Assembly: GCA_017551725.1 (NCBI GenBank)
Contig: JAFZKY010000037.1
Coordinates: 123,595 to 187,594 of the forward strand
Length of the DNA stretch: 64,000 bases
Direction: 5' to 3'
DNA from: Bacteroidales bacterium
Lineage (GTDB): Bacteria > Bacteroidota > Bacteroidia > Bacteroidales > WCHB1-69
Shown: positions 750 to 63,535 of the stretch, in pieces
Position numbering within the stretch: the first letter of the stretch is position 1
How the letters are laid out: each line of letters begins with the position of its first letter
Translations under genes and position numbers: made by a program
Notes under the pieces: model-generated
Databases searched by the model: none
The model's input: the letters and a program-made list of their open reading frames with translations, nothing else
Told to the model about the DNA's origin: nothing

Positions 750-3050
750 TTAAAACCTTACCCTCACACCTCCCAGGAAGTTGATGCCGGCCTGCGGGAA
801 GTAGCCCGTGTCATAGTATTTGCCCGGTTCATCCTCATAGTAAGAGGTGTAGATCCAGGCATTGCTTTCATACTTGGCGTTGAAGAGGTTGTTGACATGG
901 AAGAAGAGTTCCAAGTCCTTCAAGCATTTGAAATGGAAGGTGTATGAAAGACGCAGATTGCTGTAGGAGTACGGCCTCAAGCAATACGTGTCATCGCCGG
1001 AATTGTCGAGATATTGCTTGCCGACAAACTTGGTGGTCAAGGAGATGTTGAAGTCCTTGAGCGGGGTGAAGGTGAAGTCGTTGCCCAGAATCACGCCTGG
1101 CGAGAAGGAAATCGGGGTGTTGCCCAGTTCTTGGCGCACCTGTCCGTCCCAGTCCCAGTTCTCACCGGAATAGTGGTCCACATAGTTCACGTAATTCACG
1201 ATCCTGTTTATGCTGAGGTTTCCGTTGAAATGCCACGTGAAGAAGCGCACGGGACGGTAGCCCACTGACAGTTCAATGCCGCCGCGAAAGCTTTTATCCA
1301 CATTGGTCATCAGCGCGTCGCCGGTCTGGTCCAGCTCACCGGTGCGCACCAACTGGTTCTTGTAGTTCATGCCATACAGCGTGGCGTTGAGGAAAAACTT
1401 GTCGTTATGAGCCAAATAGCTGAATTCCAAATTGTAAAGAGTTTCCGGAATCGGTTTTCGATCATTTGGAGCCGCCACAAGGTCGTCGCGGGTGGGCTCG
1501 CTGTTGGCTGTGGAAAAGGAGAGGTCGAAGCTGTGTTTCAGTTTTCCACCGTTCAGGTAATAGTGCAGCGCGATTCTGGGGTTCACAAAGTTCCAGTTAT
1601 ATCGCTGCGCAATGTCCATCATATCATCGTTGGTACCGTCAATGACATAGTTGATGTGGCGATATTGCAATTCAGCCGTCACACTGAATTTCTTGTACCA
1701 GTAGCGCAGTCCGCCGAAAAACTTGGTCTGCGTCTTGTGACCAGTGCCGTAATACCATTGGTAATCACACGGATAGTCCTGCACGCGGTTGGGCTGCGCC
1801 CAGATCAGATTTCCGAAATGCTTGCCGTCATAGCGACTGTTGTCCATACCCACCACCCAGCGCAGGCCTTGGTCGGTATGGTTGCGGAACACTTGCGAGC
1901 CGGTATATTGTGCATGGATTCCATAAAAATAGTTGTCCAGATATTTTTGCGTGATGAAATCCGCCTTTTTGATGGAGTCATACAACGGTTCAAGCCCGAA
2001 ATTCCGGATTTTCTTGTTGTCTTTGTATTGCTGATAATAGCCTTCTCCACGCGTCAGGTAAGGCATCATCTGTAATTTGTGATGCTGAAGTCCGTCCTGA
2101 CGGATCCAGTCTTTCAGGTATTCCAGTTGATAGAATGTCTGGGTGTAATTGTCCTTGGAATCCGTATAATAGTGGCGTTGGCCGTCGTCTGTGTAATATT
2201 CGCCGCAGGGATTGTAGGTGCGGTTGGTGGCGAGGCTGTCATACGGAATGCCGCTCCAGGCGAGCCCCGTATGCTCGGTGCCGAACAGGAGATGGAACCT
2301 CAGTTTGCCGTAGTCCTTATTTTTCTTGAAGTTGTAAAGATTGTACTGCGCGGTGAGGAAACCGGAGTTGAGGCGCACGCCGGAATAGTCAAGGAAGCCG
2401 TCGCTGCGGATGTCGGAGAAGGAGGCCAGCATGGAGAAGTGTTTGCCGATAAGGCCGGTGCCTGCGCTCACCATGTTGTGAAAGGTGTTGTATGAGCCGT
2501 AGGAGCTGCGCACCTCGGCAAATGGTCTGTCGGGAATCTCCTTGGTCATAAAGTCGATACGAGTGCTGAAAAGCGTGCTGCCATCGTTGGAGTTGGCGCC
2601 GTTTTGCACGCTCACCTGCCCGATGTAGGCGGCCATATCGGGGAGGTTGACGAGCCAGGAGCCCTGCGACTCGGCATTGTTGATGGTCACTCCGTTGAGG
2701 GTGGTGTTGATGCGCGTCTGGTCGATGCCACGGATGAACATGTAGGTGGCGCCGAGGCCGTTGCCGCCATCCGAAGTGGTGACCACGGAGGGCATCAGCT
2801 CCAGCAGATTGTTGACGCTTCCGTTACCCTGCTGCGCGCGGATCTGCGGCATCGACATGGTGGTGACGTTGGCCGCCGTCTGCACCGTGGGCTTGGTGAA
2901 CTGGATGGTCACTTCCTCCACCTCGCCGCGCTGCACGGTGTCGATTTGTGCCGAAAGCATCGGAGACAACACAATGAGGAACAATAGGGTAACAAAGGAG
3001 TTGACTATGAACTCTGAACCATGAACTTTGAACTTTAAACTTTGAAACAT
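750..3050 (-). CDS. TonB-dependent outer-membrane receptor, TPP-riboswitch controlled (probable thiamine/thiamine-precursor uptake)
   Basis: 766-aa ORF with a signal peptide (..LLFLIVLSPMLSAQ) and a plug-like region (LMPSVVTTSDGGNGLGATYMFIRGIDQTRINTTLNGVTINN). A long barrel ends ..GGVRVRF with a terminal aromatic residue. A THI-box lies about 70 nt upstream. Confidence 0.85.
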   Translation of the reverse strand: MFQSLKFKVHGSEFIVNSFVTLLFLIVLSPMLSAQIDTVQRGEVEEVTIQFTKPTVQTAANVTTMSMPQIRAQQGNGSVNNLLELMPSVVTTSDGGNGLGATYMFIRGIDQTRINTTLNGVTINNAESQGSWLVNLPDMAAYIGQVSVQNGANSNDGSTLFSTRIDFMTKEIPDRPFAEVRSSYGSYNTFHNMVSAGTGLIGKHFSMLASFSDIRSDGFLDYSGVRLNSGFLTAQYNLYNFKKNKDYGKLRFHLLFGTEHTGLAWSGIPYDSLATNRTYNPCGEYYTDDGQRHYYTDSKDNYTQTFYQLEYLKDWIRQDGLQHHKLQMMPYLTRGEGYYQQYKDNKKIRNFGLEPLYDSIKKADFITQKYLDNYFYGIHAQYTGSQVFRNHTDQGLRWVVGMDNSRYDGKHFGNLIWAQPNRVQDYPCDYQWYYGTGHKTQTKFFGGLRYWYKKFSVTAELQYRHINYVIDGTNDDMMDIAQRYNWNFVNPRIALHYYLNGGKLKHSFDLSFSTANSEPTRDDLVAAPNDRKPIPETLYNLEFSYLAHNDKFFLNATLYGMNYKNQLVRTGELDQTGDALMTNVDKSFRGGIELSVGYRPVRFFTWHFNGNLSINRIVNYVNYVDHYSGENWDWDGQVRQELGNTPISFSPGVILGNDFTFTPLKDFNISLTTKFVGKQYLDNSGDDTYCLRPYSYSNLRLSYTFHFKCLKDLELFFHVNNLFNAKYESNAWIYTSYYEDEPGKYYDTGYFPQAGINFLGGVRVRF

Positions 3051-3117
3051 ACTCTTACAGTTTTGGTTTTTAATAAATTAAACAATACTGAAAGAGGGAT
3101 TTGGAAATAGAAACGTT

Positions 3118-3192
3118 TGTCTCCCTACGGCGGCATTATCCGCATCAGGTTCAACGGGTCTGATCTCAGCCTTTCGGCACCCCTTTCAAAAC
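3118..3192 (-). promoter_or_regulatory. TPP (THI-box) riboswitch aptamer
   Basis: The minus strand reads GAAAGGGGUGCCGAAAGGCUGAGAUCAGACCCGUUGAACCUGAUGCGGAUAAUGCCGCCGUAGGGAG. This matches the conserved TPP aptamer blocks GGGGUGC / GGCUGAGA / ACCC / ACCUGAU..GGAUAAUGCC.GCGUAGGGA. It sits between a -7 promoter box and the receptor start codon. Confidence 0.93.
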
Positions 3193-3197
3193 GGCGG

Positions 3198-3340: not shown

Positions 3341-4858
3341 ATGAGTTCATACACTACCATTATCATTATTGCGGCCGTCATCCTGGGCTTTATCCTCATC
3401 ATCTCCTACGTTAAAACACCACCCAAAGAGGCCATGATCATCTCAGGTCTCTCCAAACAGCCCCGCGTGCTGATTGGCAAAGGCGGGTTCCGGATCCCGT
3501 TTTTCGAGCGTATCGACAAAGTGTTCCTCGGCCAGACCTCCGTGGACATCAAGACCAGCACCTCGGTGCCCACCAACGACTTCATCAACGTGATGGTGGA
3601 TGCGGTGGCCAAGATCCGCGTCATGAACACGCCGGAAGGTATCCGTCTGGCTGCCAAGAACTTTCTGAACATGTCGGAGAAGGACATCGCCGCGCAGTGC
3701 AAGGACTCGCTGGAGGGCAACATGCGTGAAGTCATCGGCGCCGTCACGCTGAAGAACCTCAACATTGACCGCGACGGCTTCTCGGACCAGATTGCCAAGA
3801 AGGCCGGTCCCGACATGGCCAAACTGGGTATTGAGATCATCTCCTGCAACATCCAGAACATCACAGACGAGGTGGGCTTGATCAAGGATTTGGGTGCCGA
3901 CAACACCTACGCCATCCGCAAGCAGGCCGCCATCACCAAGGCCGAGGCCGAGCGCGACATCGCCATCAAGCAGTCGGAAGCCAAGAAGGCCGCCAACGAC
4001 GCGCGCGTACTCAACGAGACCATCATCGCCGAAAAGAACAACGAGCTGGCAGTGAAGATTGCCGACCTCAAAGTGGTGGAAGACACGCAGAAAGCCAAGG
4101 CGGATGCCGCCTACATGATCCAGCAGCAGGAGCAGCAGAAGACGGTGAACGAGAAGACCGTGGAGGCCGTGGCCGCCAAGAGCATCCTCGAACAGGAGAA
4201 GCAGAAGGTCATCAACTCCAAGCAGGTGGAGGCCCAGATTGAAAAGGCGAAACGCGAGCAGGAGCTGACCGCCGAAAAGGTTAAGATTCAACAGAATACA
4301 TTGGAAGCTGAAATTCAGAAGAAAGCCGATGCCGACAAGTACAACACGGAGATCTCCGCCGCCGCCGAGCTGGAACAGCGCAAGCGCAACGCGGAAGCCG
4401 CCGCCTACGAGGCTGAGCAGAATGCCAAGGCAGTGCGTGCTCTGGCCGAGGCCGAACAGTACAAGATGGAGCAAGAGGCTATCGGTAAAAAGAAAATCGC
4501 CGATGCCGAGGCCTACGCCATCGAGCAGAAAGGTAAAGCCGAAGCCGAGGCTCTGCGCCTGAAGGCTGAGGCTTACAAGGAGTACGGCGATGCCGCCAAG
4601 GCCCAGATGGTCATTGAGAAGCTGCCGGAAATCGCCGCCAGCATCGCCGAGCCCATCGCCGCCATCAAGGACGTGCGCATCTACGGCAACGATGGCAAGG
4701 GTGTGGCCGAGATGTCGGGCAATGTGCCCACCGTCATCCGCCAGACTATGGATGTGGTATCCGACGCCACTGGCGTGAACATGGGTGAGATCATGAAGAC
4801 CACCACGCTGGAAGGCGCCGTGAAACGGACATCCCAGAAAAACAGCAATAACCAATAA
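3341..4858 (+). CDS. flotillin-like SPFH/band-7 family protein
   Basis: 505 aa with an N-terminal TM segment (IIIIAAVILGFILIISYV). An SPFH-like core follows (RIPFFERIDKVFLGQTSVDIKT..VDAVAKIRV), then a roughly 250-aa A/E/K/Q-rich coiled-coil region typical of bacterial flotillins. Confidence 0.85.
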   Translation: MSSYTTIIIIAAVILGFILIISYVKTPPKEAMIISGLSKQPRVLIGKGGFRIPFFERIDKVFLGQTSVDIKTSTSVPTNDFINVMVDAVAKIRVMNTPEGIRLAAKNFLNMSEKDIAAQCKDSLEGNMREVIGAVTLKNLNIDRDGFSDQIAKKAGPDMAKLGIEIISCNIQNITDEVGLIKDLGADNTYAIRKQAAITKAEAERDIAIKQSEAKKAANDARVLNETIIAEKNNELAVKIADLKVVEDTQKAKADAAYMIQQQEQQKTVNEKTVEAVAAKSILEQEKQKVINSKQVEAQIEKAKREQELTAEKVKIQQNTLEAEIQKKADADKYNTEISAAAELEQRKRNAEAAAYEAEQNAKAVRALAEAEQYKMEQEAIGKKKIADAEAYAIEQKGKAEAEALRLKAEAYKEYGDAAKAQMVIEKLPEIAASIAEPIAAIKDVRIYGNDGKGVAEMSGNVPTVIRQTMDVVSDATGVNMGEIMKTTTLEGAVKRTSQKNSNNQ

Positions 4859-4869
4859 TCCTGATTATC

Positions 4870-5106
4870 ATGAAAAAAATAATTGCGTTGCTGCTTTCTG
4901 CCTTGGGATTTTTTACAGCCTGTGACGGGCCCGAACTCATGTACGGTCCTGTTCCTCCTGAACATTGGACGACACCTGACGACACCATGTCGGTGATGTA
5001 TGGTCCTGGTTACAAAACATTTGTGCCGGACAGACAAATGGATGTCATCCAGTCAAAAGATGAAGCGTCCTCCGAAGATACGCCGTTCACGGACGAGTCC
5101 AAATAA
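4870..5106 (+). CDS. small putative lipoprotein (radical-SAM-associated type)
   Basis: 78 aa with lipobox LGFFTAC. The mature part carries two MYGP motifs (LMYGPVPPE, VMYGPGYK) and an acidic tail. It starts 11 nt after the flotillin gene and ends 6 nt before the radical SAM gene. Confidence 0.7.
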   Translation: MKKIIALLLSALGFFTACDGPELMYGPVPPEHWTTPDDTMSVMYGPGYKTFVPDRQMDVIQSKDEASSEDTPFTDESK

Positions 5107-5112
5107 CCGCGT

Positions 5113-6186
5113 ATGAAATTAGGTTGGAAGAAACGGGCCGCGCTGGAGTTGTATCGCAAGTACCACGCCATCGAGGTGCGGGAGCACACGCTGCAACAGC
5201 TCTTTTGGGAGTGTACGCTCCGTTGTTACCTCAACTGCAAGCACTGCGGCAGCGACTGTACCGCCAAAAGCAACACACCCGACATGCCGGCGGAGGATTT
5301 TATGGCCGTCATCGACAAGCTCACGCCGCACGTGGACCCGCACAAGGTAATGGTCATCTTCTCGGGTGGCGAGCCGCTGATGCGCACCGACTTGGAGCAG
5401 GTGGCGAAGGAACTCCACAAGCGCGAATACCCTTGGGGGATGGTAAGCAACGGCATGTTGCTGGACCGTGCCCGTTTGGATTCGCTGTTGCGTGCAGGCT
5501 TGCAATCCATCACCATCAGTCTGGACGGCTTCGCCGAGGAGCACAACGCCATGCGCGGCCATCCCGACAGCTTCGACCGGGCCGTGGAATCCATCCGCAT
5601 GATTGCGACGGAGCCGAACCTAACCTACGATGTGGTTACCTGCGTCACGCCAAAAACATACCCATATTTGGACCAGTTCAAGGAATTCCTGATCGGCATC
5701 GGGGTGCGGCGCTGGCGCATCTTCACCATCTTCCCGGCGGGACGCGCAGCGGACGACGACAGCTTACAACTTACCCACGAACAGGTGCAAGGGATTATGG
5801 AGTTCATCAAGCGTGCCCGACAAGAGGGTCGCATCCATTTGAACTTCGCCTGCGAGGGTTTTCTCGGCCGCTACGAAGCCGAGGTGCGCGACTATTTCTA
5901 CCATTGCGCCGCCGGCGTGAACGCGGCCAGCATCCGCATCGACGGCAGCATCTCCGGCTGCACCAGCATCCGGCACAACTTCCATCAAGGCAACATCTAC
6001 AAGGACGACTTCTGGGACGTATGGCAGAACCGTTTCCAGGAGTTCCGCGACCGCCGCTGGGCCAAGACCGGCCCGTGCGAGCACTGCGAGGCCTTCCGCT
6101 ACTGCCAGGGCGGCGGTATGCACCAGCGCGACGACGAGCGCCAACTGGTGGATTGTCTGTATTTGAAGTTGAATAGTATTCAGTAA
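5113..6186 (+). CDS. radical SAM protein with C-terminal SPASM/twitch-like Cys cluster
   Basis: 357 aa. CYLNCKHC is the CX3CX2C radical SAM cluster motif. GGEPL is a SAM-binding glycine-rich motif. The C-terminal CEHCEAFRYC (CX2CX5C) plus upstream Cys residues fit an auxiliary Fe-S (SPASM) domain. Confidence 0.85.
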   Translation: MKLGWKKRAALELYRKYHAIEVREHTLQQLFWECTLRCYLNCKHCGSDCTAKSNTPDMPAEDFMAVIDKLTPHVDPHKVMVIFSGGEPLMRTDLEQVAKELHKREYPWGMVSNGMLLDRARLDSLLRAGLQSITISLDGFAEEHNAMRGHPDSFDRAVESIRMIATEPNLTYDVVTCVTPKTYPYLDQFKEFLIGIGVRRWRIFTIFPAGRAADDDSLQLTHEQVQGIMEFIKRARQEGRIHLNFACEGFLGRYEAEVRDYFYHCAAGVNAASIRIDGSISGCTSIRHNFHQGNIYKDDFWDVWQNRFQEFRDRRWAKTGPCEHCEAFRYCQGGGMHQRDDERQLVDCLYLKLNSIQ

Positions 6187-6187
6187 T

Positions 6188-6294
6188 CAGGGATCAGGGG
6201 ACAGGGGTCAGTGATCAGTTAATAGTTGTCGTTCATTGTTCATTATTAACTATTAATTATTAATTGTTAATTATTAATTATTAATTGTTCATGG
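6188..6294. repeat. 7-nt-phased tract of about 15 units (CAG-phase heptamers, then AT-rich heptamers)
   Basis: CAG/TAG/YRT recur at 6188, 6195, 6202, 6209, 6216, 6223 ... 6286, exactly 7 nt apart: cagggat cagggga caggggt cagtgat cagttaa tagttgt cgttcat tgttcat tattaac tattaat tattaat tgttaat tattaat tattaat tgttcat. The tract starts 1 nt after the stop codon at 6184-6186. Confidence 0.8.
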
Positions 6295-6342
6295 TTGAAA
6301 TTCAAAACCCCACACCCGACATGCTATATGATTTTTTTTGAT

Positions 6343-10042: not shown

Positions 10043-10080
10043 ATCGGGGATGCGCAGGTGCGTGTCCCCGATGTTGTTTT
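10043..10080 (+). terminator. rho-independent terminator hairpin
   Basis: An 8-bp stem pairs atcgggga (10043-10050) with tccccgat (10065-10072) around a 14-nt loop, followed by gttgtttt. It lies between convergent genes. Confidence 0.55.
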
Positions 10081-11585
10081 CAGTCCTTCCGCAACTGGAT
10101 GCGCATAACCGTGCCGTGGTCAATGACGGATGATTTCACGAACAACCGGCCCTTGTGGTACTCGTTGATGATGCGGCGGGCCAGCGTGAGGCCGAGACCC
10201 CAGCCTCTGCTTTTCGACGTGTAGCCAGGCGAGAAGATGCGCTTCTGCATTTTGACCGGAATGCCCTTGCCCGTGTCGGAAATATCCACATACACCTTGT
10301 TTTTCTCTTCTATAATGTCAATGTTGATGACCCCCTTGCCATCCATGGCATCCACGGAGTTCTTGCACAGGTTTTCCACCACCCATTCAAACAGATAGCG
10401 GTTGAGAGGGATGATGATGGAGGAAGCCTCCGGACGGTTGAAATGGATTTTCACCATAGAAGAAATGCGGCTTTGCAGATATTGGGAGAACTCGTCGATG
10501 ACGACCACCAGGTCGGTGGGCTCCAGCACGGGTGCCGAGCCGATTTTGGAGAAACGCTGCGCGATGGTCTCCAACCGATGCACATCCTTGCCGATTTCGG
10601 TGGGGATGGACTGGTCGATGGGCATCTCCTTCAGCAGTTCGGTCCAGGCCATGAGCGAGGATATGGGCGTGCCCAGCTGGTGGGCGGTCTCCTTGCTCAT
10701 GCCCACCCACACGCGATTCTGCTCCGACCTGCGCTGCGTGCTGAAGAGCAGGTAGGCGATGATAATGAAAACAAGAAGGAAACCGAGCTCAATATAGGGG
10801 AAGATGCGCAATTTGCGCAGCACGGGCGAGTTTTCGTAATAGACAAAACACTTGCCAATGTCAATAAGGTCAAGTTCGATGGGATTGTTTTCGTCGTTCA
10901 TCCGCTTGAGCTCCTGTTGGAGGCTCACGGGGTCTTTCAGCAGGTTGGTGTCCATGTTGCCAGCCGTGATGACATTCTGCCGAGTGCTGTCGGTGATGAT
11001 GACTGGCACAGAGGCCGAATTGATGACCGTCTCTTGAAAGAAAGATTGTATCAGGTTGTCGATGACGCTGTGCAAATCCACATACACGGGATCCTCCTGG
11101 TAGTAAACCTTCACGTAGTGCCGTCCGTAATACGGCAGAATGACGCTGTCATAGTCGGCCAAAGCAGCGCCCAACTCTTCCACATTCTTCATTTCAGCCA
11201 CGGAGTCAGGCACATTGACGGCGGCGGTGATGTTGCCGTTGGGCTCGGCCACGATGAGCGGCACGCTCGTGTTCATGGAGATAATGTCCGTGTAGAAGGT
11301 GATGTCCTCGTCGAAAGAGGCGGAGGTCACCTTGCGGATGGCGCGTGCGAGAATCTTGGCGTTGTTGCTCTCCTCCACACGAATGGAGTTGAAGAAGGCT
11401 TCCGTTTCATTGACAATCTGTGCCTTGTAGGAGATGGCCCCGGCCCAGATCTCCACACGCTGTCTCTCCTCCTGGGCTATGTTTTTGATAAGCTTGTTGG
11501 AGTAAACCATAATCAACACAAAGACAATGGCTGCGGATATGAAGAGCAGCCATTTCCATTGTGACTTTTGAATACCCTTGTTCAT
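10080..11585 (-). CDS. sensor histidine kinase (orphan, no adjacent response regulator)
   Basis: 501 aa with two TM segments flanking a roughly 230-aa periplasmic region. H-box HQLGTPISSLMAWTELL; N-box NLCKNSVDAM; G-boxes DTGKGI and GWGLGL. Confidence 0.85.
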   Translation of the reverse strand: MNKGIQKSQWKWLLFISAAIVFVLIMVYSNKLIKNIAQEERQRVEIWAGAISYKAQIVNETEAFFNSIRVEESNNAKILARAIRKVTSASFDEDITFYTDIISMNTSVPLIVAEPNGNITAAVNVPDSVAEMKNVEELGAALADYDSVILPYYGRHYVKVYYQEDPVYVDLHSVIDNLIQSFFQETVINSASVPVIITDSTRQNVITAGNMDTNLLKDPVSLQQELKRMNDENNPIELDLIDIGKCFVYYENSPVLRKLRIFPYIELGFLLVFIIIAYLLFSTQRRSEQNRVWVGMSKETAHQLGTPISSLMAWTELLKEMPIDQSIPTEIGKDVHRLETIAQRFSKIGSAPVLEPTDLVVVIDEFSQYLQSRISSMVKIHFNRPEASSIIIPLNRYLFEWVVENLCKNSVDAMDGKGVINIDIIEEKNKVYVDISDTGKGIPVKMQKRIFSPGYTSKSRGWGLGLTLARRIINEYHKGRLFVKSSVIDHGTVMRIQLRKD

Positions 11586-11597
11586 GGCAGGGGACGG

Positions 11598-12578
11598 TTA
11601 TTCGGCGGCGGCCAGCAGCTTGTCGATAATCTGCTCGACGGTAATTCCTTCGGCCTCAGCCTTGTAGTTCTTGATGATTCTGTGTCGGAGGATGTTGTAA
11701 GACACGGCACGCACGTCCTCGATATCGGGCGAGTACTTGCCATTGAGCACGGCGTGGGTGCGTGCGCCGATGATGAGGAACTGCGAGGCACGCGGGCCGG
11801 CACCCCACGAGAGGTAGTCGTTGGCCCACGGGTGCGCGCCTGCCGTGCCCGGACGCGTGAGCGTGGCCAGACTGACGGCGTAACGGTAGACGTTCTCCGG
11901 AACGGGCACCTTCATCAGCAACTTCTGGTAGAAGATGATGTCTTCCACCGTCAGCACGCGCTTGGGCTCCTGCATGGCCCCGTGGATGGTGCTCTTCACA
12001 ATCTGCACCTCCTCGTCCTTGGTGGGATAATCCAGCAGGATGTTGAACATGAAACGGTCCTGTTGGGCTTCCGGCAGCGGATAGGTACCCTCCTGCTCGA
12101 TGGGGTTCTGCGTAGCCAATACGAAGAACGGATCAGGCAGCTGGTAGGTGGTGCCGTTCATACTGACGGAACGCTCCTGCATGGCCTCCAAAAGAGCCGA
12201 CTGCGTCTTGGGCGGTGTACGGTTGATCTCGTCCGCCAGCACGATGTTGGCGAAGATGGGGCCCTTGACGAACTTGAAGTTGCGGCTGTCGTCCAGAATC
12301 TCCGCACCCATGATGTCGGACGGCATCAAGTCGGGGGTGAACTGGATACGGTTGTACGACATATCCACCGCCTTGGCGATGGTGGTGATCATAAGGGTTT
12401 TGGCCAGGCCGGGCACACCAATCAGCAGGGCGTGGCTGCGGCTGAACATGGCCATCAGGATATTCTTCACCACTTCGTCCTGCCCGACGATGACCTTGGC
12501 GATTTCCTTTTTCAGTTCGGCGTATTTTTCAACGAAAGCCTCAATAGCTTCCACATCGGATTTAGTGTTCAAGTCCAT
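11598..12578 (-). CDS. MoxR-family AAA+ ATPase
   Basis: 326 aa. Walker A GVPGLAKT, Walker B VLADEINRTPPKTQSALLEAMQE, and MoxR-typical length and C-terminus. Confidence 0.9.
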   Translation of the reverse strand: MDLNTKSDVEAIEAFVEKYAELKKEIAKVIVGQDEVVKNILMAMFSRSHALLIGVPGLAKTLMITTIAKAVDMSYNRIQFTPDLMPSDIMGAEILDDSRNFKFVKGPIFANIVLADEINRTPPKTQSALLEAMQERSVSMNGTTYQLPDPFFVLATQNPIEQEGTYPLPEAQQDRFMFNILLDYPTKDEEVQIVKSTIHGAMQEPKRVLTVEDIIFYQKLLMKVPVPENVYRYAVSLATLTRPGTAGAHPWANDYLSWGAGPRASQFLIIGARTHAVLNGKYSPDIEDVRAVSYNILRHRIIKNYKAEAEGITVEQIIDKLLAAAE

Positions 12579-12606
12579 ATTTTAGTTATTATCTTAAAAA
12601 TCTATT

Positions 12607-12641
12607 CTGTACCCTGTCAACTGTCCCCTGTACCCTATTCC
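12607..12641. repeat. 7-nt-phased tract (CTG-phase on + strand, so CAG-phase relative to the minus-strand gene it follows)
   Basis: ctgtacc ctgtcaa ctgtccc ctgtacc ctattcc, with CTG/CTA at 12607, 12614, 12621, 12628 and 12635. The last unit contains the PPIase stop codon (12635-12637). Confidence 0.75.
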
Positions 12642-13993
12642 GGAATCTGCCATTTGCTAACGAAAGGACAGTCTCTATATTGTTCATTTATTTTAATGCT
12701 GGTCACTTTTACCTTCTCAACCACCCATTTCTGGAGAGCGTCATAGCGTTTCTCTTCCAAGGCGGCATTCTTGATCATGTCGTAGTCCTCCACGATGTTG
12801 GCCTTGTGCTCGCTCACCTTCTCCTTCAGATAGAGGAGCCGGTAGGCCATAACGCCGTCATCGTTGACGAAGGGCACACACTCGGAATATTCGCCGGGGA
12901 TGAGCTTGTTGAGGGCGATATAGGTGGCGTCGTCAAGAGACTGGCGGTCGAATTCGTTGGAGCTGGTATAAGGGTTCACCACAAGGCCGCCGTTGAGACG
13001 CGTGGGGCCTTCGGAAAAGCGCTTGGCCGCCTCTTCGATGGGAAGTTTCTCGTTGAGGATGATGGCGCGCACGCTGTCGAGGTAGGTGATGGCCTTCACC
13101 TGCTCGTCGGTGGAGGGCTTGGGCTGGATGAGGATGTGCGCCACATGGATGGACTCGCCGCGGCGCTCGATCATCTGGATGATATGGTAGCCTGCCTGCG
13201 TCTTGATCACCTGGGATATCTCGCCGGACTTGAGGTTGAAGGCGGCGGCCTCAAATTCCGGATAGAGGGTACCGCGCTCCACGAAGCCGAGGTCGCCGCC
13301 CTTGGAGGCGCTGCCGGGGTCGTCGGAGTAGAGGCGTGCCAGCATGGAGAACTTCTCGCCACGGAGCACGCGCTCGCGGTAGCCGTTCAGCCGGTCCTTC
13401 ACCTCCTGGATCTCCACCTCGCTCACCGGCGGAATCTTGACAATCTCGCCGAAAAAGTAGCTGGTAGGCACCACTGGCATGCTGTCGGGCGACATCTTGC
13501 TGGCGAACTGCTTGACCTCCGACGGGGTGATGGTGATGTTGCCGGTGATCTTGCTCTGCTCCTGCTCAATGAGGGCCTGGTCGTACATCATCTCCCGCAG
13601 GTCTTTCTTGATCTCCGCCATGGATTTGTGGAAATACTCCTCAATGTATTTCTCGTTGCCACCCACCTGCTGGAGGAAATAGGACATGCGCGCGTTGATG
13701 CGGTAGTCCACCTCCTCATCCGAAACCTCGATGCTGTCAAGCCCGGCCTGGTTGACCAGCAACTTGTTGAACATCAAGGTTTCCAGAATAAAACAATGGG
13801 TCTCGAAAGGATCTTCCACCGTCTTGAACTGGGAGGTGTAGTCCAGATAGTTCTTCTCCAAATCCGACTGCAAAATAACCTCCTTACCAATGACGGCCAC
13901 GATACCGTCCACGGGTGTGCCCGCGCTCCGGGGTTGGGCGTTGAGCAGCAGGACGGACCAGACCGTAAGCAGGAGGCAGATGATTCTTTTCAT
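12635..13993 (-). CDS. SurA-like peptidyl-prolyl cis-trans isomerase (parvulin domain)
   Basis: Parvulin signature GGDLGFVERGTLYPEFEAAAFNLKSGEISQVIKTQAGYHIIQMIERRG. I prefer the start at MKRIICLLLTVWSVLLLNAQ (signal peptide, ATG at 13993). In-frame ATGs at 14005 and 14050 are alternatives. Confidence 0.85.
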   Translation of the reverse strand: MKRIICLLLTVWSVLLLNAQPRSAGTPVDGIVAVIGKEVILQSDLEKNYLDYTSQFKTVEDPFETHCFILETLMFNKLLVNQAGLDSIEVSDEEVDYRINARMSYFLQQVGGNEKYIEEYFHKSMAEIKKDLREMMYDQALIEQEQSKITGNITITPSEVKQFASKMSPDSMPVVPTSYFFGEIVKIPPVSEVEIQEVKDRLNGYRERVLRGEKFSMLARLYSDDPGSASKGGDLGFVERGTLYPEFEAAAFNLKSGEISQVIKTQAGYHIIQMIERRGESIHVAHILIQPKPSTDEQVKAITYLDSVRAIILNEKLPIEEAAKRFSEGPTRLNGGLVVNPYTSSNEFDRQSLDDATYIALNKLIPGEYSECVPFVNDDGVMAYRLLYLKEKVSEHKANIVEDYDMIKNAALEEKRYDALQKWVVEKVKVTSIKINEQYRDCPFVSKWQIPE

Positions 13994-14046
13994 TGTTTGT
14001 GACATTTGGAGACCTTTGGTGTTTTGAAAAAACAGGGTGCGAAAAT

Positions 14047-14074
14047 ACAAAAAAAAGAAGACATTTGCCTTCTT
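14047..14074 (-). terminator. weak hairpin plus T-run after rpmH
   Basis: The minus strand reads aagaag-gcaaatgt-cttctt followed by an 8-nt T run. The stem is only 6 bp. Confidence 0.35.
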
Positions 14075-60209: not shown

Positions 60210-61910
60210 ATGAAACAGTTAATCGAATGTGTTCCTAACTTTAGTGAAGGCAAAAATCAAGACATCATCAACCAGGTGGCCGACGTAATCCGTCAGGCCG
60301 AGGGCGTCACACTGCTGGATGTGGACCCGGGTGCCACCACCAACCGCACCGTGGTCACGTTTGTGGGCACTCCCGATGCCGTGGTGGATGCCGCTTTTGC
60401 GCTCATCGCCAAATGCAAAGAGCTGATAGACATGCGTTATCATCACGGTGACCATCCCCGTTTCGGTGCCACGGACGTGTGTCCGTTTGTGCCGGTGGCC
60501 AACATCACCATGGAAGAGACGGCGGAATACGCCCGCAAGTTGGCCAAGAAGGTAGGTGAAGAATTGCAGATTCCGGTTTACTGTTATGAGAATGCCGCCT
60601 TTGAGGAGAAACGCCGCAACCTAGCCAACTGCCGCCAGGGCGAATACGAGGCCCTGAAAGAGCGCATCACCACCAAGGAGTGGAAGCCCGACTTTGGTCC
60701 CAACAAGTTCACGGAGAGTGTGGCCAAGAGCGGTGCCACCGCCATCGGCGCCCGCGACTTCCTCATCGCCGTCAACTACAACCTGAACACCACCTCCACG
60801 CGCCGCGCCAACGCCATCGCCTTCGACGTGCGCGAGAAGGGCCGCCCGAAGCGTGAGGGCAACCCCATCACCGGCAAGAAGGTGCTGGACGAGAAGGGCA
60901 ACCCGGTCATGATCCCCGGCACGCTCAAGGGCACCAAGGCCATCGGCTGGTACATCGCCGAGTACGGTGTCGCCCAGGTCTCCATGAACATCACCAACAC
61001 CAACCTCACCCCGTTGCACGTGGCCTTTGACGAGGTGTGCGACAAGGCGGCCAAGCGGGGCGTGCGCGTCACCGGCACGGAAATTGTGGGTCTCGTGCCC
61101 AAGAAAACCCTCATCGACGCGGGCAACCACTATCTGGCCAAACAGCACCGCTCCCTCGGCATCGATGAGCGCGAGAAGGTGAAAATCGCCGTCAAGTCCA
61201 TGGGCTTGGATGACCTCAAACCCTTCAATCCGGATGAGAAAGTGATTGAATACTTGCTTGAAAAAGAGGATACTACACCCAAGTTGGTGGACATGACCTG
61301 CACGGGTTTCGCCAATGAGACGGCCTCCGAAAGTCCGGCCCCCGGCGGCGGCTCCATTTCCGCCTACATGGGAGCCCTGGGCGCCGCCCTCGGCACGATG
61401 GTCGCCAACCTCTCCTCCCATAAGCCGGGCTGGGATGCCAAGTGGGAATATTATTCCCAATGGGCTGAAAAAGGCCAAGCCCTCAAAGACACGCTGCTGG
61501 CCCTCGTGGATGAGGATACCAACGCCTTCAACGTGATTATGAACGCCTTCGGTATGCCGAAAGGCACGCCTGAAGAGAAAGAGGCGCGTTCGCAGGCCAT
61601 CCAGGATGCCACCAAGTACGCCACCGAAGTGCCTATGCGCACCATCGAGACCTCCTTCAAGGTGTTCGAGATCTGCGAGGCAATGATCAAGAAGGGCAAC
61701 CCCGCCAGCGTGTCCGACGCGGGCGTGGGCGTACTCTGTGCGCGTGCAGCCGTCCACGGCGCCTACCTCAACGTCAAAATCAACGCCTCCTCGCTGAAAG
61801 ACAAAGCGTGGGCCGAGATGATGATCACCAAGGCGCACGACTACGTGATGAAAGCCGACCGCATCGAAAAGAGACTGATGAGGTTGACGGAGAAGGTGAT
61901 CGGTGAATAG
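60210..61910 (+). CDS. ftcD: bifunctional glutamate formimidoyltransferase / formimidoyltetrahydrofolate cyclodeaminase
   Basis: 566 aa. MKQLIECVPNFSEGKN is the hallmark start of the formiminotransferase domain. The C-terminal roughly 200 aa are helical and cyclodeaminase-like (GGGSISAYMGALGAALGTMVANLS). Confidence 0.9.
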   Translation: MKQLIECVPNFSEGKNQDIINQVADVIRQAEGVTLLDVDPGATTNRTVVTFVGTPDAVVDAAFALIAKCKELIDMRYHHGDHPRFGATDVCPFVPVANITMEETAEYARKLAKKVGEELQIPVYCYENAAFEEKRRNLANCRQGEYEALKERITTKEWKPDFGPNKFTESVAKSGATAIGARDFLIAVNYNLNTTSTRRANAIAFDVREKGRPKREGNPITGKKVLDEKGNPVMIPGTLKGTKAIGWYIAEYGVAQVSMNITNTNLTPLHVAFDEVCDKAAKRGVRVTGTEIVGLVPKKTLIDAGNHYLAKQHRSLGIDEREKVKIAVKSMGLDDLKPFNPDEKVIEYLLEKEDTTPKLVDMTCTGFANETASESPAPGGGSISAYMGALGAALGTMVANLSSHKPGWDAKWEYYSQWAEKGQALKDTLLALVDEDTNAFNVIMNAFGMPKGTPEEKEARSQAIQDATKYATEVPMRTIETSFKVFEICEAMIKKGNPASVSDAGVGVLCARAAVHGAYLNVKINASSLKDKAWAEMMITKAHDYVMKADRIEKRLMRLTEKVIGE

Positions 61911-61947
61911 GGTACAGGGTACAGTGAACAGGGTACAGGGTACATTT
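61908..61947. repeat. 7-nt-phased CAG-type tract (left flank of the four-helix-bundle gene)
   Basis: taggg tacaggg tacagtg aacaggg tacaggg taca. TAG/CAG recur at 61908 (the ftcD stop codon), 61915, 61922, 61929, 61936 and 61943. Confidence 0.8.
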
Positions 61948-61955
61948 TTTGAAAT

Positions 61956-62312
61956 ATGATAAAGAACTATAGAGAGTTGATTGTATGGCAGAAGGCTATG
62001 GAAATGGTGGAGAATATCTATACCTTGACCCAGTCGTTACCCAAAGATGAGTTGTTTTCCATAACTAATCAAATACGACGTGCAGCAATATCAGTACCTT
62101 CTAATATAGCAGAAGGATATGGGCGACAATCGAAAAAAGAATATCTGCAATTTCTATCAATAGCCAATGGCTCCGTATGCGAAATCGAAACCCAGTTATT
62201 GTTGTGTCTAAGAATTGGTTATCTAACAGAAGAAAACACAAAAGAGACCTTTCAATTACTTTCCGAAATTGGAAAAATAATAACAACAATCAAACAAAAA
62301 CTCAAAACATAA
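61956..62312 (+). CDS. four-helix-bundle protein (23S rRNA intervening-sequence protein / Avd-like family)
   Basis: 118 aa. The sequence LIVWQKAMEMVENIYTLTQSLPKDELFSITNQIRRAAISVPSNIAEGYGRQSKKEYLQFLSIANGSVCEIETQLLL matches the family signature (W.ka..l...iy.....P..E.....Q.rRaa.Si..NIAEG..r.s..e...fl.iA.GS..E..t.l). The gene is visibly AT-rich compared with its neighbours. Confidence 0.9.
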   Translation: MIKNYRELIVWQKAMEMVENIYTLTQSLPKDELFSITNQIRRAAISVPSNIAEGYGRQSKKEYLQFLSIANGSVCEIETQLLLCLRIGYLTEENTKETFQLLSEIGKIITTIKQKLKT

Positions 62313-62362
62313 TCCCTGTTCCCTAATTACTGACTACTATCCCCTGACCCCTGATTCCTAAA
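62313..62362. repeat. 7-nt-phased CTG-type tract (right flank, inverted relative to 61908-61947)
   Basis: tccctg ttcccta attactg actacta tcccctg acccctg attccta. CTG/CTA recur at 62316, 62323, 62330, 62337, 62344, 62351 and 62358. The reverse complement gives CAG-phase heptamers. Confidence 0.8.
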
Positions 62363-62371
62363 TAACACACA

Positions 62372-63535
62372 ATGAAACTATTAATGGTCCTCTCGCGCTT
62401 CCCGTATCCCCTTGAGAAGGGGGACAAGCTGCGTGCGTACCATCAGATTCGTTGCCTGTCGGAACAACATGAGATATTCCTGGCCGCCATGCACGACAAG
62501 CCGGTGACCGACGAGGACCTGCGCCAGCTGGAGCCTTTCTGCAAGGAGATCTTTCTTTTGGACAATAATCACCTTAAACGCTGCTGGAACATGGGCAGGG
62601 CTTTCTTCAAGGGCCTGCCCATCCAGTGCGGACTTTTCTACAACAAGACCAATGCGCGACGGCTGGAGGAGATTGTCCAAAAGGTGCAACCCGACCATAT
62701 CTACTGCCAACTCTTCCGGATGGCGGAATACGTGAAGACCATGCCCCTGCCCAAAACGCTTGACTATCAGGATGTCTTCTCCAAAGGCATGGCGCGGCGG
62801 GCCGAGAACGCCCGTGGACTGAAAAGGGCCCTCTTCCGCATGGAGGCCCGCCGCGTGGCACGCTATGAGGAGCACCTCTTCGACCTTTTTGACCATACGA
62901 CCATCATCACCGCCGTGGACCGCGACCTCATCCCCCACCCGCGCAACCGCGAGATTGCAGTGGTGCCCAACGGTGTGGACTTCGACCAATTCACCTATCA
63001 TGGCGAGACCAAATCGTATGATCTGATTTTCTCGGGCAATATGGGATATGCCCCCAATGTGGATGCCGCCGAATACCTGGCTACGGAAATCTTGCCCCCG
63101 CTACTGGAGGGATTTCCCGACATGAAACTGGTGCTGGTTGGGGCTAACCCCTCCGCAAGGGTGCGCGCCCTGCGCAACGAACACGTCATCGTGACCGGCT
63201 GGGTGGACACGATGGCCGACTGGTATGCCCAATCCAAGGTCTTCATCGCCCCGATGCGCATGGGCACGGGACTGCAAAACAAACTGCTGGAAGCCATGTC
63301 CATGCAACTGCCCTGCGTCACATCCCCATTAGCCGCCAAACCTCTGTCCGGAGCCGAAACTGAAAACGCCGTCTGCGTATGCCATAACACCCACGACTAT
63401 GTGGAAGCCATCCGCCAACTTTTGCGGAATGAAGAGGCATACCGACAGCTGGCCGCCGCCGGCCACCGCTTCGTGCACGAGCATTACGACTGGCAAAATG
63501 CCACAGACAAACTGTTGCAAATCATCGCCCAATAA
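62372..63535 (+). CDS. glycosyltransferase family 4
   Basis: 387 aa. MKLLMVLSRFPYPLEKGDKLRAYHQI is a GT4 N-terminal domain. The C-terminal part is FIAPMRMGTGLQNKLLEAMSMQLPCVTS. Confidence 0.8.
   Translation: MKLLMVLSRFPYPLEKGDKLRAYHQIRCLSEQHEIFLAAMHDKPVTDEDLRQLEPFCKEIFLLDNNHLKRCWNMGRAFFKGLPIQCGLFYNKTNARRLEEIVQKVQPDHIYCQLFRMAEYVKTMPLPKTLDYQDVFSKGMARRAENARGLKRALFRMEARRVARYEEHLFDLFDHTTIITAVDRDLIPHPRNREIAVVPNGVDFDQFTYHGETKSYDLIFSGNMGYAPNVDAAEYLATEILPPLLEGFPDMKLVLVGANPSARVRALRNEHVIVTGWVDTMADWYAQSKVFIAPMRMGTGLQNKLLEAMSMQLPCVTSPLAAKPLSGAETENAVCVCHNTHDYVEAIRQLLRNEEAYRQLAAAGHRFVHEHYDWQNATDKLLQIIAQ

Follow-up and report, generated by a model that had tools for sequence, protein, structure and literature searches.

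In cyanobacteria, tandem arrays of seven-nucleotide units were already known by about 1990, and accounts from Xanthomonas, Beggiatoaceae, and Bacteroidetes followed. Genes of the family PF05635 are very abundant, and arrays and genes alike are long-standing orphans. The arrays of Xanthomonas and Nostoc include the classical short tandemly repeated repetitive (STRR) heptamers of cyanobacteria, and Elhai and colleagues reportedly found in 2008 that heptamer repeats of Nostoc serve as insertion sites for small dispersed repeats. The present study concerns heptamer tracts in 64,000 nucleotides of DNA from a Bacteroidales bacterium (contig JAFZKY010000037.1, forward strand, 123,595 to 187,594), a stretch that I will call the window. 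The tracts are probably ends that act in cis, or sequences derived from such ends, and belong to a family of small gene cassettes present as insertions. One cassette lies at 61903-62358 and carries a gene for what I will refer to as IVP, the PF05635 / TIGR02436 protein ("23S rRNA intervening-sequence protein", an Avd-like four-helix bundle).

The closest described arrays are the GGGAATC / GGGGAYT heptamers of Xanthomonas and Nostoc (Rehm et al. 2015, PMC4692102). They show a preference for four units, lie on the coding strand within 0-50 bp of a stop codon or overlapping it, form 70-75 convergent inverted pairs per Xanthomonas genome, and differ in copy number between strains. Oligonucleotides of the Xanthomonas and Nostoc units form G-quadruplexes (G4s) in vitro, and the authors reported "no association with mobile elements". 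MacGregor (2015, PMC4679880) described TAACTGA direct repeats in Beggiatoaceae, cyanobacteria, and some Bacteroidetes, in arrays of 2-6 units that have stops in three frames, possibly overlap the ends of open reading frames (ORFs), and have a patchy spread across phyla. These repeats are found mostly just upstream of start codons, with one inverted pair noted, and the author speculated that a repeat-binding protein might be the true mobile element. On the side of the protein, the intervening sequence (IVS) in the 23S rRNA of Coxiella is a 428-nt selfish element with an S23p / IVP ORF, a 28-bp terminal stem, a GC content below that of its host, excision by RNase III, and a means of movement that is not known (Warrier et al. 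2016, PMC4990558). IVP-bearing IVSs in Coxiella and Leptospira are about 430-460 nt long, and their sporadic distribution suggests horizontal transfer.

An initial annotation of the window had described four loci with runs of heptamers in a fixed CAG (or complementary CTG) phase, and inspection of the sequence finds all four, beginning at 6188, 12607, 61908, and 62313. The phase is exact. A search for CAG-N4-CAG-N4-CAG-N4-CAG with up to one mismatch gives 11 matches, all of them within the four loci and in the orientations originally given, as against 0.26 on average, and never more than 2, in dinucleotide-preserving shuffles, which bears out the description of a non-random dispersed family. 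A sliding test of self-similarity (s[i]=s[i+7], cut-off at least 20 of 28 matches) likewise yields 4 tracts at period 7, 0-1 at periods 5, 6, 8, 9, and 10, and about 0.05 in first-order shuffles. Tandem Repeats Finder calls period-7 arrays at 6186-6218, 6242-6286, 12607-12636, 61909-61944, and 3004-3046; the tracts at 12607 and 62313 are less regular and fall under the stricter array score cut-off. The neighboring genes are those originally named (by Pfam-level annotation of the window), and the tracts are, as claimed, neither CRISPR arrays (the units are contiguous, with no unique spacers), nor hairpin terminators (the tracts at 6188 and 12607 are no better folded than shuffles, z = -1.06 and +1.34), nor coding repeats. 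Other parts of that description require revision. The first tract was located correctly, but its extent is about 6172-6303 and roughly 18 units, rather than 6188-6294 and about 15. The list of four is complete for the CAG-phased family but omits a fifth period-7 tract, at 3004-3043, with the unrelated unit ACTTTGA. The statement that no known class of feature explains the tracts is wrong, since published intergenic heptamer arrays (PMC4692102, PMC4679880) match them. What was missed altogether is that the tracts at 61908 and 62313 belong together as the arms of a single element, with a PF05635 gene between them.

That element fits exactly between the stop of ftcD (60210-61910, + strand) and the start of a group-1 glycosyltransferase gene (62372-63535, ATG at 62372), in the same orientation as both. 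Its left arm (61903-61947, + strand) comprises about six units, GTGAATA GGGTACA GGGTACA GTGAACA GGGTACA GGGTACA, and aligns with the corresponding arm in three other strains (L002, L108, and L102; L numbers designate the loci compared). The cargo (61956-62312, + strand, stop at 62310-62312) encodes an IVP of 118 amino acids, recognized by Pfam PF05635 (E=2e-41), by NCBIfam NF008911 and TIGR02436, and by similarity to PDB 2gsc (E=1.7e-24). The right arm (62313-62358, minus strand: GGAATCA GGGGTCA GGGGATA GTAGTCA GTAATTA GGGAACA GGGA, hence C-rich on the + strand) follows the IVP stop without a gap and leaves 13 nt before the ATG of the glycosyltransferase gene; it is longer by 7-nt steps in L002 and L108. 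It approximates the reverse complement of the left arm, and the two, taken as RNA, pair in both minimum free energy and centroid folds, enclosing the IVP ORF. The IVP gene has a GC content of 34.7%, as compared to 57-59% in ftcD and the glycosyltransferase gene, and this low value marks the cassette as foreign.

The left arm intrudes into ftcD, holding what is now the final codon (GAA, 61905-61907) along with the stop (TAG, 61908-61910). The ftcD proteins of relatives, which carry the annotation uncultured Bacteroidales, end in ...EKVIG*, while that of the window ends in ...EKVIGE*, one residue longer (GGT GAA TAG in the window, GGC TAA TAG in L002), so that both the last codon and the stop come from the tract. 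The original ftcD stop has mutated, leaving the TAG of the array to terminate the predicted protein. The left arm may also be read as two copies of a 21-nt unit (Tandem Repeats Finder, period 21 x 2.0 at 61903-61944). Such a super-period, in which three different heptamers form a block, is frequent in arrays (another example is the right arm of L108, at about 3667-3760) and suggests that arrays grow by steps of three units.

The same junction was compared among strains whose ftcD is 93-97% identical to that of the window. Here and in the other comparisons of loci, ORFs run from stop to stop with no gene calls, arrays were called at thresholds that I set, and most of the sequences are metagenome assemblies, in which repeats may collapse, break, or be mis-assembled. 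In its empty state (L005-L007) the junction consists of the ftcD TAA, 11 nt, and the ATG, with no array. One strain (L102) has arms with no cargo, 64 nt in all: TAATAGGGTACAGTAAACAGGGTACAGG | TCCCTGTACCCTGACTACTA. The window, L002, and L108 share the same IVP between GGGTACA arms whose unit numbers differ by 7-nt steps. In L111 the IVP is just 79% identical and the arms are of CAGTAGT, though ftcD is 96-97% identical; in L101 this form is internally deleted. Elsewhere the cargo is an ORF of 249 codons between GAGACGT arms upstream and ACGTCTC / AAGTCTC arms downstream (L003, L107, L110), or the same ORF with TTACGAT units instead (L099, L100, L104), or a pair of ORFs of 81 and 191 codons behind a GAGACGT array (L008, L009). 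The 249-, 81-, and 191-aa products match no family in Pfam, NCBIfam, PADLOC, or PHROGs. The junction of L109 holds several arrays, and L106 has no array and no glycosyltransferase start was found downstream in it. At this junction, then, every type of cargo has its own unit, the arms of any one insert are always inverted copies, and arrays and cargo are gained or lost together. The comparison identifies 61903-62358, at the level of sequence, as an inserted and strain-variable cassette with inverted heptamer-array arms. The initial annotation had proposed comparing sister genomes for insertion polymorphism, and it is found both here and at the rSAM junction described below.

Two other features of this junction deserve mention. 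The leaders upstream of the alternative cargos (L003 4861-5610; L008 4841-5642; L104, L110) share a conserved, hairpin-like segment, AATGCCG..GTGGA..CGGCGG. L103 (4196-4516) and L105 (4196-4385) have non-heptameric inserts of 190-320 nt with many short GC hairpins, for example GCGTGCCGGAGGCACG, which may be a different small palindromic element at the same site.

The association between arrays and IVP genes extends far beyond the window. The window IVP was used in a tblastn survey, limited to one genome per species, that provided 80 best-hit loci of 43-57% identity, a non-random sample from Clostridia, Bacteroidota, Planctomycetota, Acidobacteriota, Chloroflexota, the candidate phyla radiation (CPR), Proteobacteria, Actinobacteria, and others. 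Within 200 nt of an IVP gene (31.8 kb in sum) there are 67 period-7 tracts, as compared to 57 in the other 392 kb, a density about 14-fold higher. Tracts of period 8 number 20 near IVP genes and 0 far from them, and none of period 5, 6, 9, or 10 was found near the IVP gene in the 80 loci. Loci of distant organisms selected by ftcD gave only 8 heptamer arrays in 377 kb. The downstream unit matches the upstream unit in reverse complement (at 6 of 7 positions or more) in 23 of the 26 loci with two clear heptamer arrays, and nearly all remaining loci have short inverted arrays of 2-4 units, judged by eye and by a looser score. Arms form more stable duplexes with their own partners (mean -34.6 kcal/mol) than with the arms of other loci (-13.0; p = 3e-10). 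In 76 of 86 arrays, the strand that leads into the cassette is the G-rich one. The commonest length is four units (38 arrays), followed by five (22), in a total of 87.

Departures from the standard layout include cargo-less inverted pairs (L102, L040, L055, L063, L079, and L088), tandem cassettes, and additional nearby arrays with an identical unit. Some IVP-flanking arrays are very long, reaching more than 20 octamer units of AAAGGCAC in a metagenome-assembled genome (MAG) of Opitutales (L084, about 2860-3000) and 10-16 heptamer units elsewhere, further long arrays being those of L053, L025, L064, and L039; several contigs end inside such arrays. IVP cassettes with inverted 7-nt arrays also occur on seven viral contigs from IMG/VR (L184-L190). 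The gene in L190 is flanked by repeats of seemingly greater length (about 11 nt) and of reversed polarity. Viruses are a possible vehicle for spread across phyla.

Array sequence and protein sequence vary together. The 81 IVPs that were clustered group by the type and period (7 or 8 nt) of their units, not by host. The clade associated with the AAAGGCAC octamer spans Opitutales, Syntrophaceae, Nitrospirae, KSB1, Flavobacteriia, and Cytophagia, and further clades share the units AATAGGC, AGCGTxT, AAGGATTC, and AGTCGTTT. A Mantel test of protein against unit gives r = 0.24, a value reached in 0 of 2000 permutations, and the nearest relative of an IVP has the same unit in 23 of 63 loci, as compared to 5% of random pairs. 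It follows from this co-variation that the IVP lineage either carries the arrays along or specifies them. So far as sequence can establish it, the architecture is general for the clade of the window IVP, in many phyla and on viral contigs, and the type of array follows the IVP clade.

These observations account for what first drew attention to the tracts, that they seem to begin at stop codons. Three window tracts do contain or abut the stop codon of the upstream gene (TAA 6184-6186; TAG 12635-12637, minus strand; TAG 61908-61910), and as the initial annotation had it, their orientation is fixed relative to that gene, the G-rich strand being the coding strand. Across the survey, 35 of 39 left arms lie behind a co-oriented host ORF. 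Read inbound, 46 of 87 arrays have a stop in every frame, and read outbound 22 of 87, the inbound stop being mostly TAG, and a host ORF that runs into such an array therefore ends within a few codons. Of 50 inbound ORFs of at least 100 codons that end between -60 and +30 nt of an array, 26 have the stop between -9 and +7 nt of the array start. Tracts and stop codons coincide, then, because cassettes directly follow co-oriented host ORFs and because inbound arrays often stop every frame. Arrays can replace or back up the stop of the host gene, as in ftcD and in the rSAM gene considered next.

Two of the window tracts are solo arrays. The first (6172-6303, + strand, about 18 units) is made of G-rich units of the xxTCAGG / GGGGACA type at 6188-6218 and then of AT-rich units of the TTATTAA type at 6219-6296. 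The period-7 phase begins at about 6172, within the last four codons of a radical SAM (rSAM)/SPASM gene (5113-6186), and the tract encodes roughly those last four codons (NSIQ) plus the TAA stop. It is present in three 99%-identical relatives (L095-L097), there with two fewer AT-rich units, and absent in relatives at 92%, 86%, and 72% identity, whose downstream genes differ; the protein ends in ...LYLKLNSIQ* with the tract and in ...LYRKLF* or similar without it. The rSAM tract is thus, by these comparisons, strain-polymorphic and marks a break in synteny. Relatives of the rSAM/SPASM protein are named TIGR04133 ("rSAM/lipoprotein system"), and a conserved 78-aa ORF with a lipoprotein-like signal sequence (4870-5106) precedes the gene. 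The pair is syntenic in all close relatives, and the downstream neighbor changes at the array. There is a low-confidence candidate for a degenerate right arm of two units at 6311-6324 (minus strand; CCCCACA CCCGACA on the + strand), whose CCCC is predicted to pair with the GGGG of the G-rich units in a fold that is overall no better than those of shuffles (z = -1.06).

The second solo array (12600-12637, minus strand) reads TAG GGTACAG GGGACAG TTGACAG GGTACAG AATAGAT, the first triplet being the stop of a gene for a SurA-like peptidyl-prolyl isomerase (PPIase; 12635-14050, minus strand), and sits in the 56-nt spacer between that gene and a MoxR gene (11598-12578, minus strand). Both solo arrays use the same xxxCAGG / xxxCAGT family of units as the arms of the cassette. 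I considered whether the two might delimit one giant cassette, as they lie 6.3 kb apart with matching unit families and the correct polarity (G-rich at 6188, C-rich at 12607), and rejected the idea, since the interval contains housekeeping genes on both strands and a relative keeps PPIase and MoxR adjacent with an array of its own. With less confidence than attaches to the cassette, I infer that the solo arrays are remnants of insertions with a single arm left, or else additional copies of the cis-site. The 93%-identical relative (L005-L007) has the gene order PPIase-MoxR-HATPase-ftcD-glycosyltransferase-Rho, and in the window the PPIase-MoxR-HATPase block (10080-14050) is inverted relative to that order and about 46 kb away from ftcD. 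The end points of this rearrangement coincide with array-bearing junctions.

A complete cassette would have the order G-rich array, cargo gene, reverse-complement array, with IVP, a relative of the accessory protein Avd of diversity-generating retroelements (DGRs), as what seems to be the usual cargo. By analogy with the IVP-bearing IVSs of rRNA, the cassette would be transcribed by read-through from the host gene and its arms would pair into a long stem around the IVP mRNA, which RNase III might process, as it does the Coxiella IVS (PMC4990558).

Several observations weigh against this interpretation and should be set beside it. No recombinase, transposase, or reverse transcriptase lies in or adjoining the cassette, and no target-site duplication can be defined at the ftcD junction, since the relative that provides the empty site is 93% identical and has another spacer there. 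Mobility is therefore deduced from polymorphism only, and allelic exchange through the flanking genes could yield the same pattern of junctions. Duplexes formed from sense arms and from antisense arms are equally stable (p = 0.5), so that the symmetry is at least at the level of DNA and says nothing specific to an RNA stem. For the same reason I abandoned the proposal, examined through the asymmetry of G:U pairs, that selection acts on an RNA stem in the sense strand only. Three-frame stops occur in merely about half of the arrays, and in the window the GGGTACA unit lacks a stop codon, only the first unit, GAATAGG, having one. Finally, the solo arrays have no partner arm, the tract at 12607 is unstructured as RNA (z = +1.34), and at the PPIase-MoxR junction of a relative (L005 340-450) the heptamer array is built of another unit, TTTAGAG / AAGACGT. 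It follows that solo arrays could arise independently of cassettes.

Other explanations for the tracts must be weighed against the same body of evidence. They may be ordinary simple-sequence repeats, born of slippage in tolerant intergenic DNA and with no link to mobile elements, their proximity to stops reflecting simply the onset of non-coding DNA. Slippage would account for unit counts that vary by 7-nt steps among near-identical strains, for the drift of units along a tract (G-rich to AT-rich over 6188-6296), and for arrays of at least 20 units (L084, L053, L025), but it leaves unexplained that the far-side array is the reverse complement of the near one, that beside IVP genes only periods 7 and 8 are found, that unit type follows IVP clade across phyla, and that arrays and cargo are gained and lost jointly at one junction. 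As the origin of the arrays slippage is already disfavored, and I consider it very improbable. A different proposal would make the arrays landing pads encoded by the host, into which unrelated genes such as that of IVP insert or by which they are captured. Cargo-less inverted pairs exist, as noted, one junction holds arrays with different cargos, and solo arrays of the same unit family appear elsewhere in the window, all of which favor a landing pad, as does the insertion within heptamer repeats reported for Nostoc. Yet the unit follows the IVP clade and not the taxonomy of the host (witness the clade of the AAAGGCAC octamer), each type of cargo at the ftcD junction has its own unit, and the truly empty site of L005-L007 has no array at all, which together render the proposal unlikely.

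The G-rich tracts may alternatively be G4 elements, selected at the 3' ends of mRNA or in DNA for control of transcript stability, termination, or replication. Four G-tracts are the minimum for a G4, the modal array has four units, and the G-rich strand faces inbound in the great majority of arrays; moreover, oligonucleotides of the Xanthomonas and Nostoc units fold in vitro, with a four-unit preference (PMC4692102). The initial annotation had in fact assigned G4 potential to the tracts at 61908 and 62313, and overstated it. A search for the motif G3N1-7 finds it in none of the four window tracts, for which reason their G4 potential must be called weak: to match a G4 motif, loops of up to 12 nt must be allowed in the tract at 61908 and of up to 21 nt in that at 62313 (minus strand), and those at 6188 and 12607 have only three G-runs each. 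Many units of the wider family (AGTAGTC, AGCAGTC, AGCGTAT, TCATTAG, GTGAATC) have no GG or GGG runs, yet their architecture is unchanged, and duplex formation competes with G4 formation in paired arms. G4 potential, to all appearances, is not what unites the tracts, and selection for it is an explanation that I doubt as much as that of landing pads. A mechanism akin to telomerase, in which a break in the chromosome would have both its 3' ends extended by G-rich repeats, has a geometry that fits (both G-rich strands run 3' towards the cargo), but no reverse transcriptase or template is evident, and the idea is pure speculation with hardly any probability.

If the tracts are indeed the ends of IVP cassettes, then a stronger claim comes into view: that IVP and its flanking arrays are one functional pair, a pentameric IVP recognizing its own 7- or 8-nt unit, and that such pairs constitute a self-specifying class of mobile cassettes across bacterial phyla and phages. 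Both relatives of the window IVP in PDB have five chains per entry, and about one unit per IVP subunit would explain arrays of 4-5 units. I put this forward tentatively, as possible rather than probable. Were it true, one family would explain the heptamer (STRR / G4) repeats of cyanobacteria and Xanthomonas, swarms of genes annotated as "four helix bundle protein", and ORF-bearing IVSs of 23S rRNA. The tracts as such are of a kind already known. What the evidence suggests to be new is the link to PF05635 cassettes, the rule of inverted arms across phyla, and the co-variation of protein and array. Full-text searches, incomplete in their coverage, brought up no publication in which PF05635 genes are connected with heptamer arrays, nor any account of the inverted-arm rule across phyla or of protein-array co-variation. 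Arrays and gene together behave as one insertion-polymorphic unit, with an array sequence that tracks the protein clade across phyla, and this raises the questions of whether IVP binds its own array, whether RNase III processes the arms, and what agent moves the cassette. Xanthomonas XCC0516, of solved structure and located at accB-accC, offers a tractable model. For annotation, the element may supply the 3' ends and stops of host genes (as in ftcD and rSAM), and contig breaks are likely at arrays.

The remaining period-7 array of the window (3004-3043, unit ACTTTGA, or TCAAAGT on the minus strand) stands outside the CAG-phased family. It fills the gap between a thiamine pyrophosphate (TPP) riboswitch (3105-3194, minus strand; Rfam RF00059, 67.6 bits) and the 5' end of the ORF for a TonB-dependent receptor (750-3050, minus strand), and would, if translation starts from the ATG at 3050, encode about the first 17 residues of the receptor. 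A MAG of ruminal Bacteroidales also has an array of the ACTTTGA unit (L031 5271-5321). The riboswitch was the only match in an Rfam scan of the whole window, which found no rRNA and no other RNA family.

How does the window element compare with systems already described? It shares with the 23S rRNA IVSs an S23p/PF05635 protein, low GC, and an inverted-repeat stem enclosing the ORF (in the window, a predicted fold). It differs in location and in construction, since IVSs are inserted into 23S rRNA at helix 45 (or at helix 9 or 25), whereas the window element lies between two protein genes and has a stem made of tandem heptamers. The resemblance to DGRs is confined to the protein. IVP has a four-helix-bundle fold homologous to that of Avd, and the window IVP matches Avd models weakly, below their cut-offs (bAvd, 38 bits against a cut-off of 40; DivGenRetAVD, 45 against 80), and a family annotated as DGR Avd in PHROGs (E=2e-11, the sole match there). 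I considered a DGR context and discarded it, as neither a reverse transcriptase nor template/variable repeats adjoin the IVP gene, whose neighbors are ftcD and the glycosyltransferase gene. A PADLOC scan of the cargos for defense systems gave no matches.

With MITEs (miniature inverted-repeat transposable elements) and repetitive extragenic palindromes and their mosaics (REP/BIME), the cassette has in common that it is small, intergenic, bounded by inverted repeats, and polymorphic between strains, and the arm pair of L102 looks palindromic. It differs from them in lacking a fixed terminal inverted repeat, since its arms are tandem arrays that vary in length. A conserved protein gene is present in most copies, and no target-site duplication or partner transposase was identified for the cassette. 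The TAACTGA repeats resemble it as intergenic heptamer arrays with stops in three frames and a patchy distribution across phyla. I rejected membership of the tracts in that family, as a single TCAGTTA unit occurs in the tract at 6188 (6188-6225) and the dominant units are CAGGGxx.

The nearest likeness is to the arrays of Rehm et al. (PMC4692102). Like them, the window tracts consist of tandem 7-nt units, intergenic and significantly in excess of chance, with the G-rich coding strand near or overlapping a stop (in the window and in the 80 other loci), an inverted pair (61903-61947 / 62313-62358), and a mode of 4-5 units in 87 arrays. Unlike them, they have a CAGGGKW-like unit rather than GGGAATC, and G4 potential in the window is weak. 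That study drew no connection between the repeats and PF05635 genes. To examine the connection in Xanthomonas itself, the sequence of XCC0516 (PDB 2gsc) was partly rebuilt from the alignment and used to retrieve loci of its Xanthomonas homologues (L179-L183). In X. citri and X. campestris the XCC0516 gene (1501-1881 / 1501-1830 in those loci) lies between accB and accC. These genes belong to the same pathway, and there nothing but the insert separates them. Upstream of the gene is the array GGGAATC GGGAGTG GAGAATC GGGAATC, and its inverted downstream equivalent ends at the ATG of accC. The XCC0516 gene is flanked by inverted GGGAATC arrays, and the published repeats at that site are therefore the arms of an IVP cassette.

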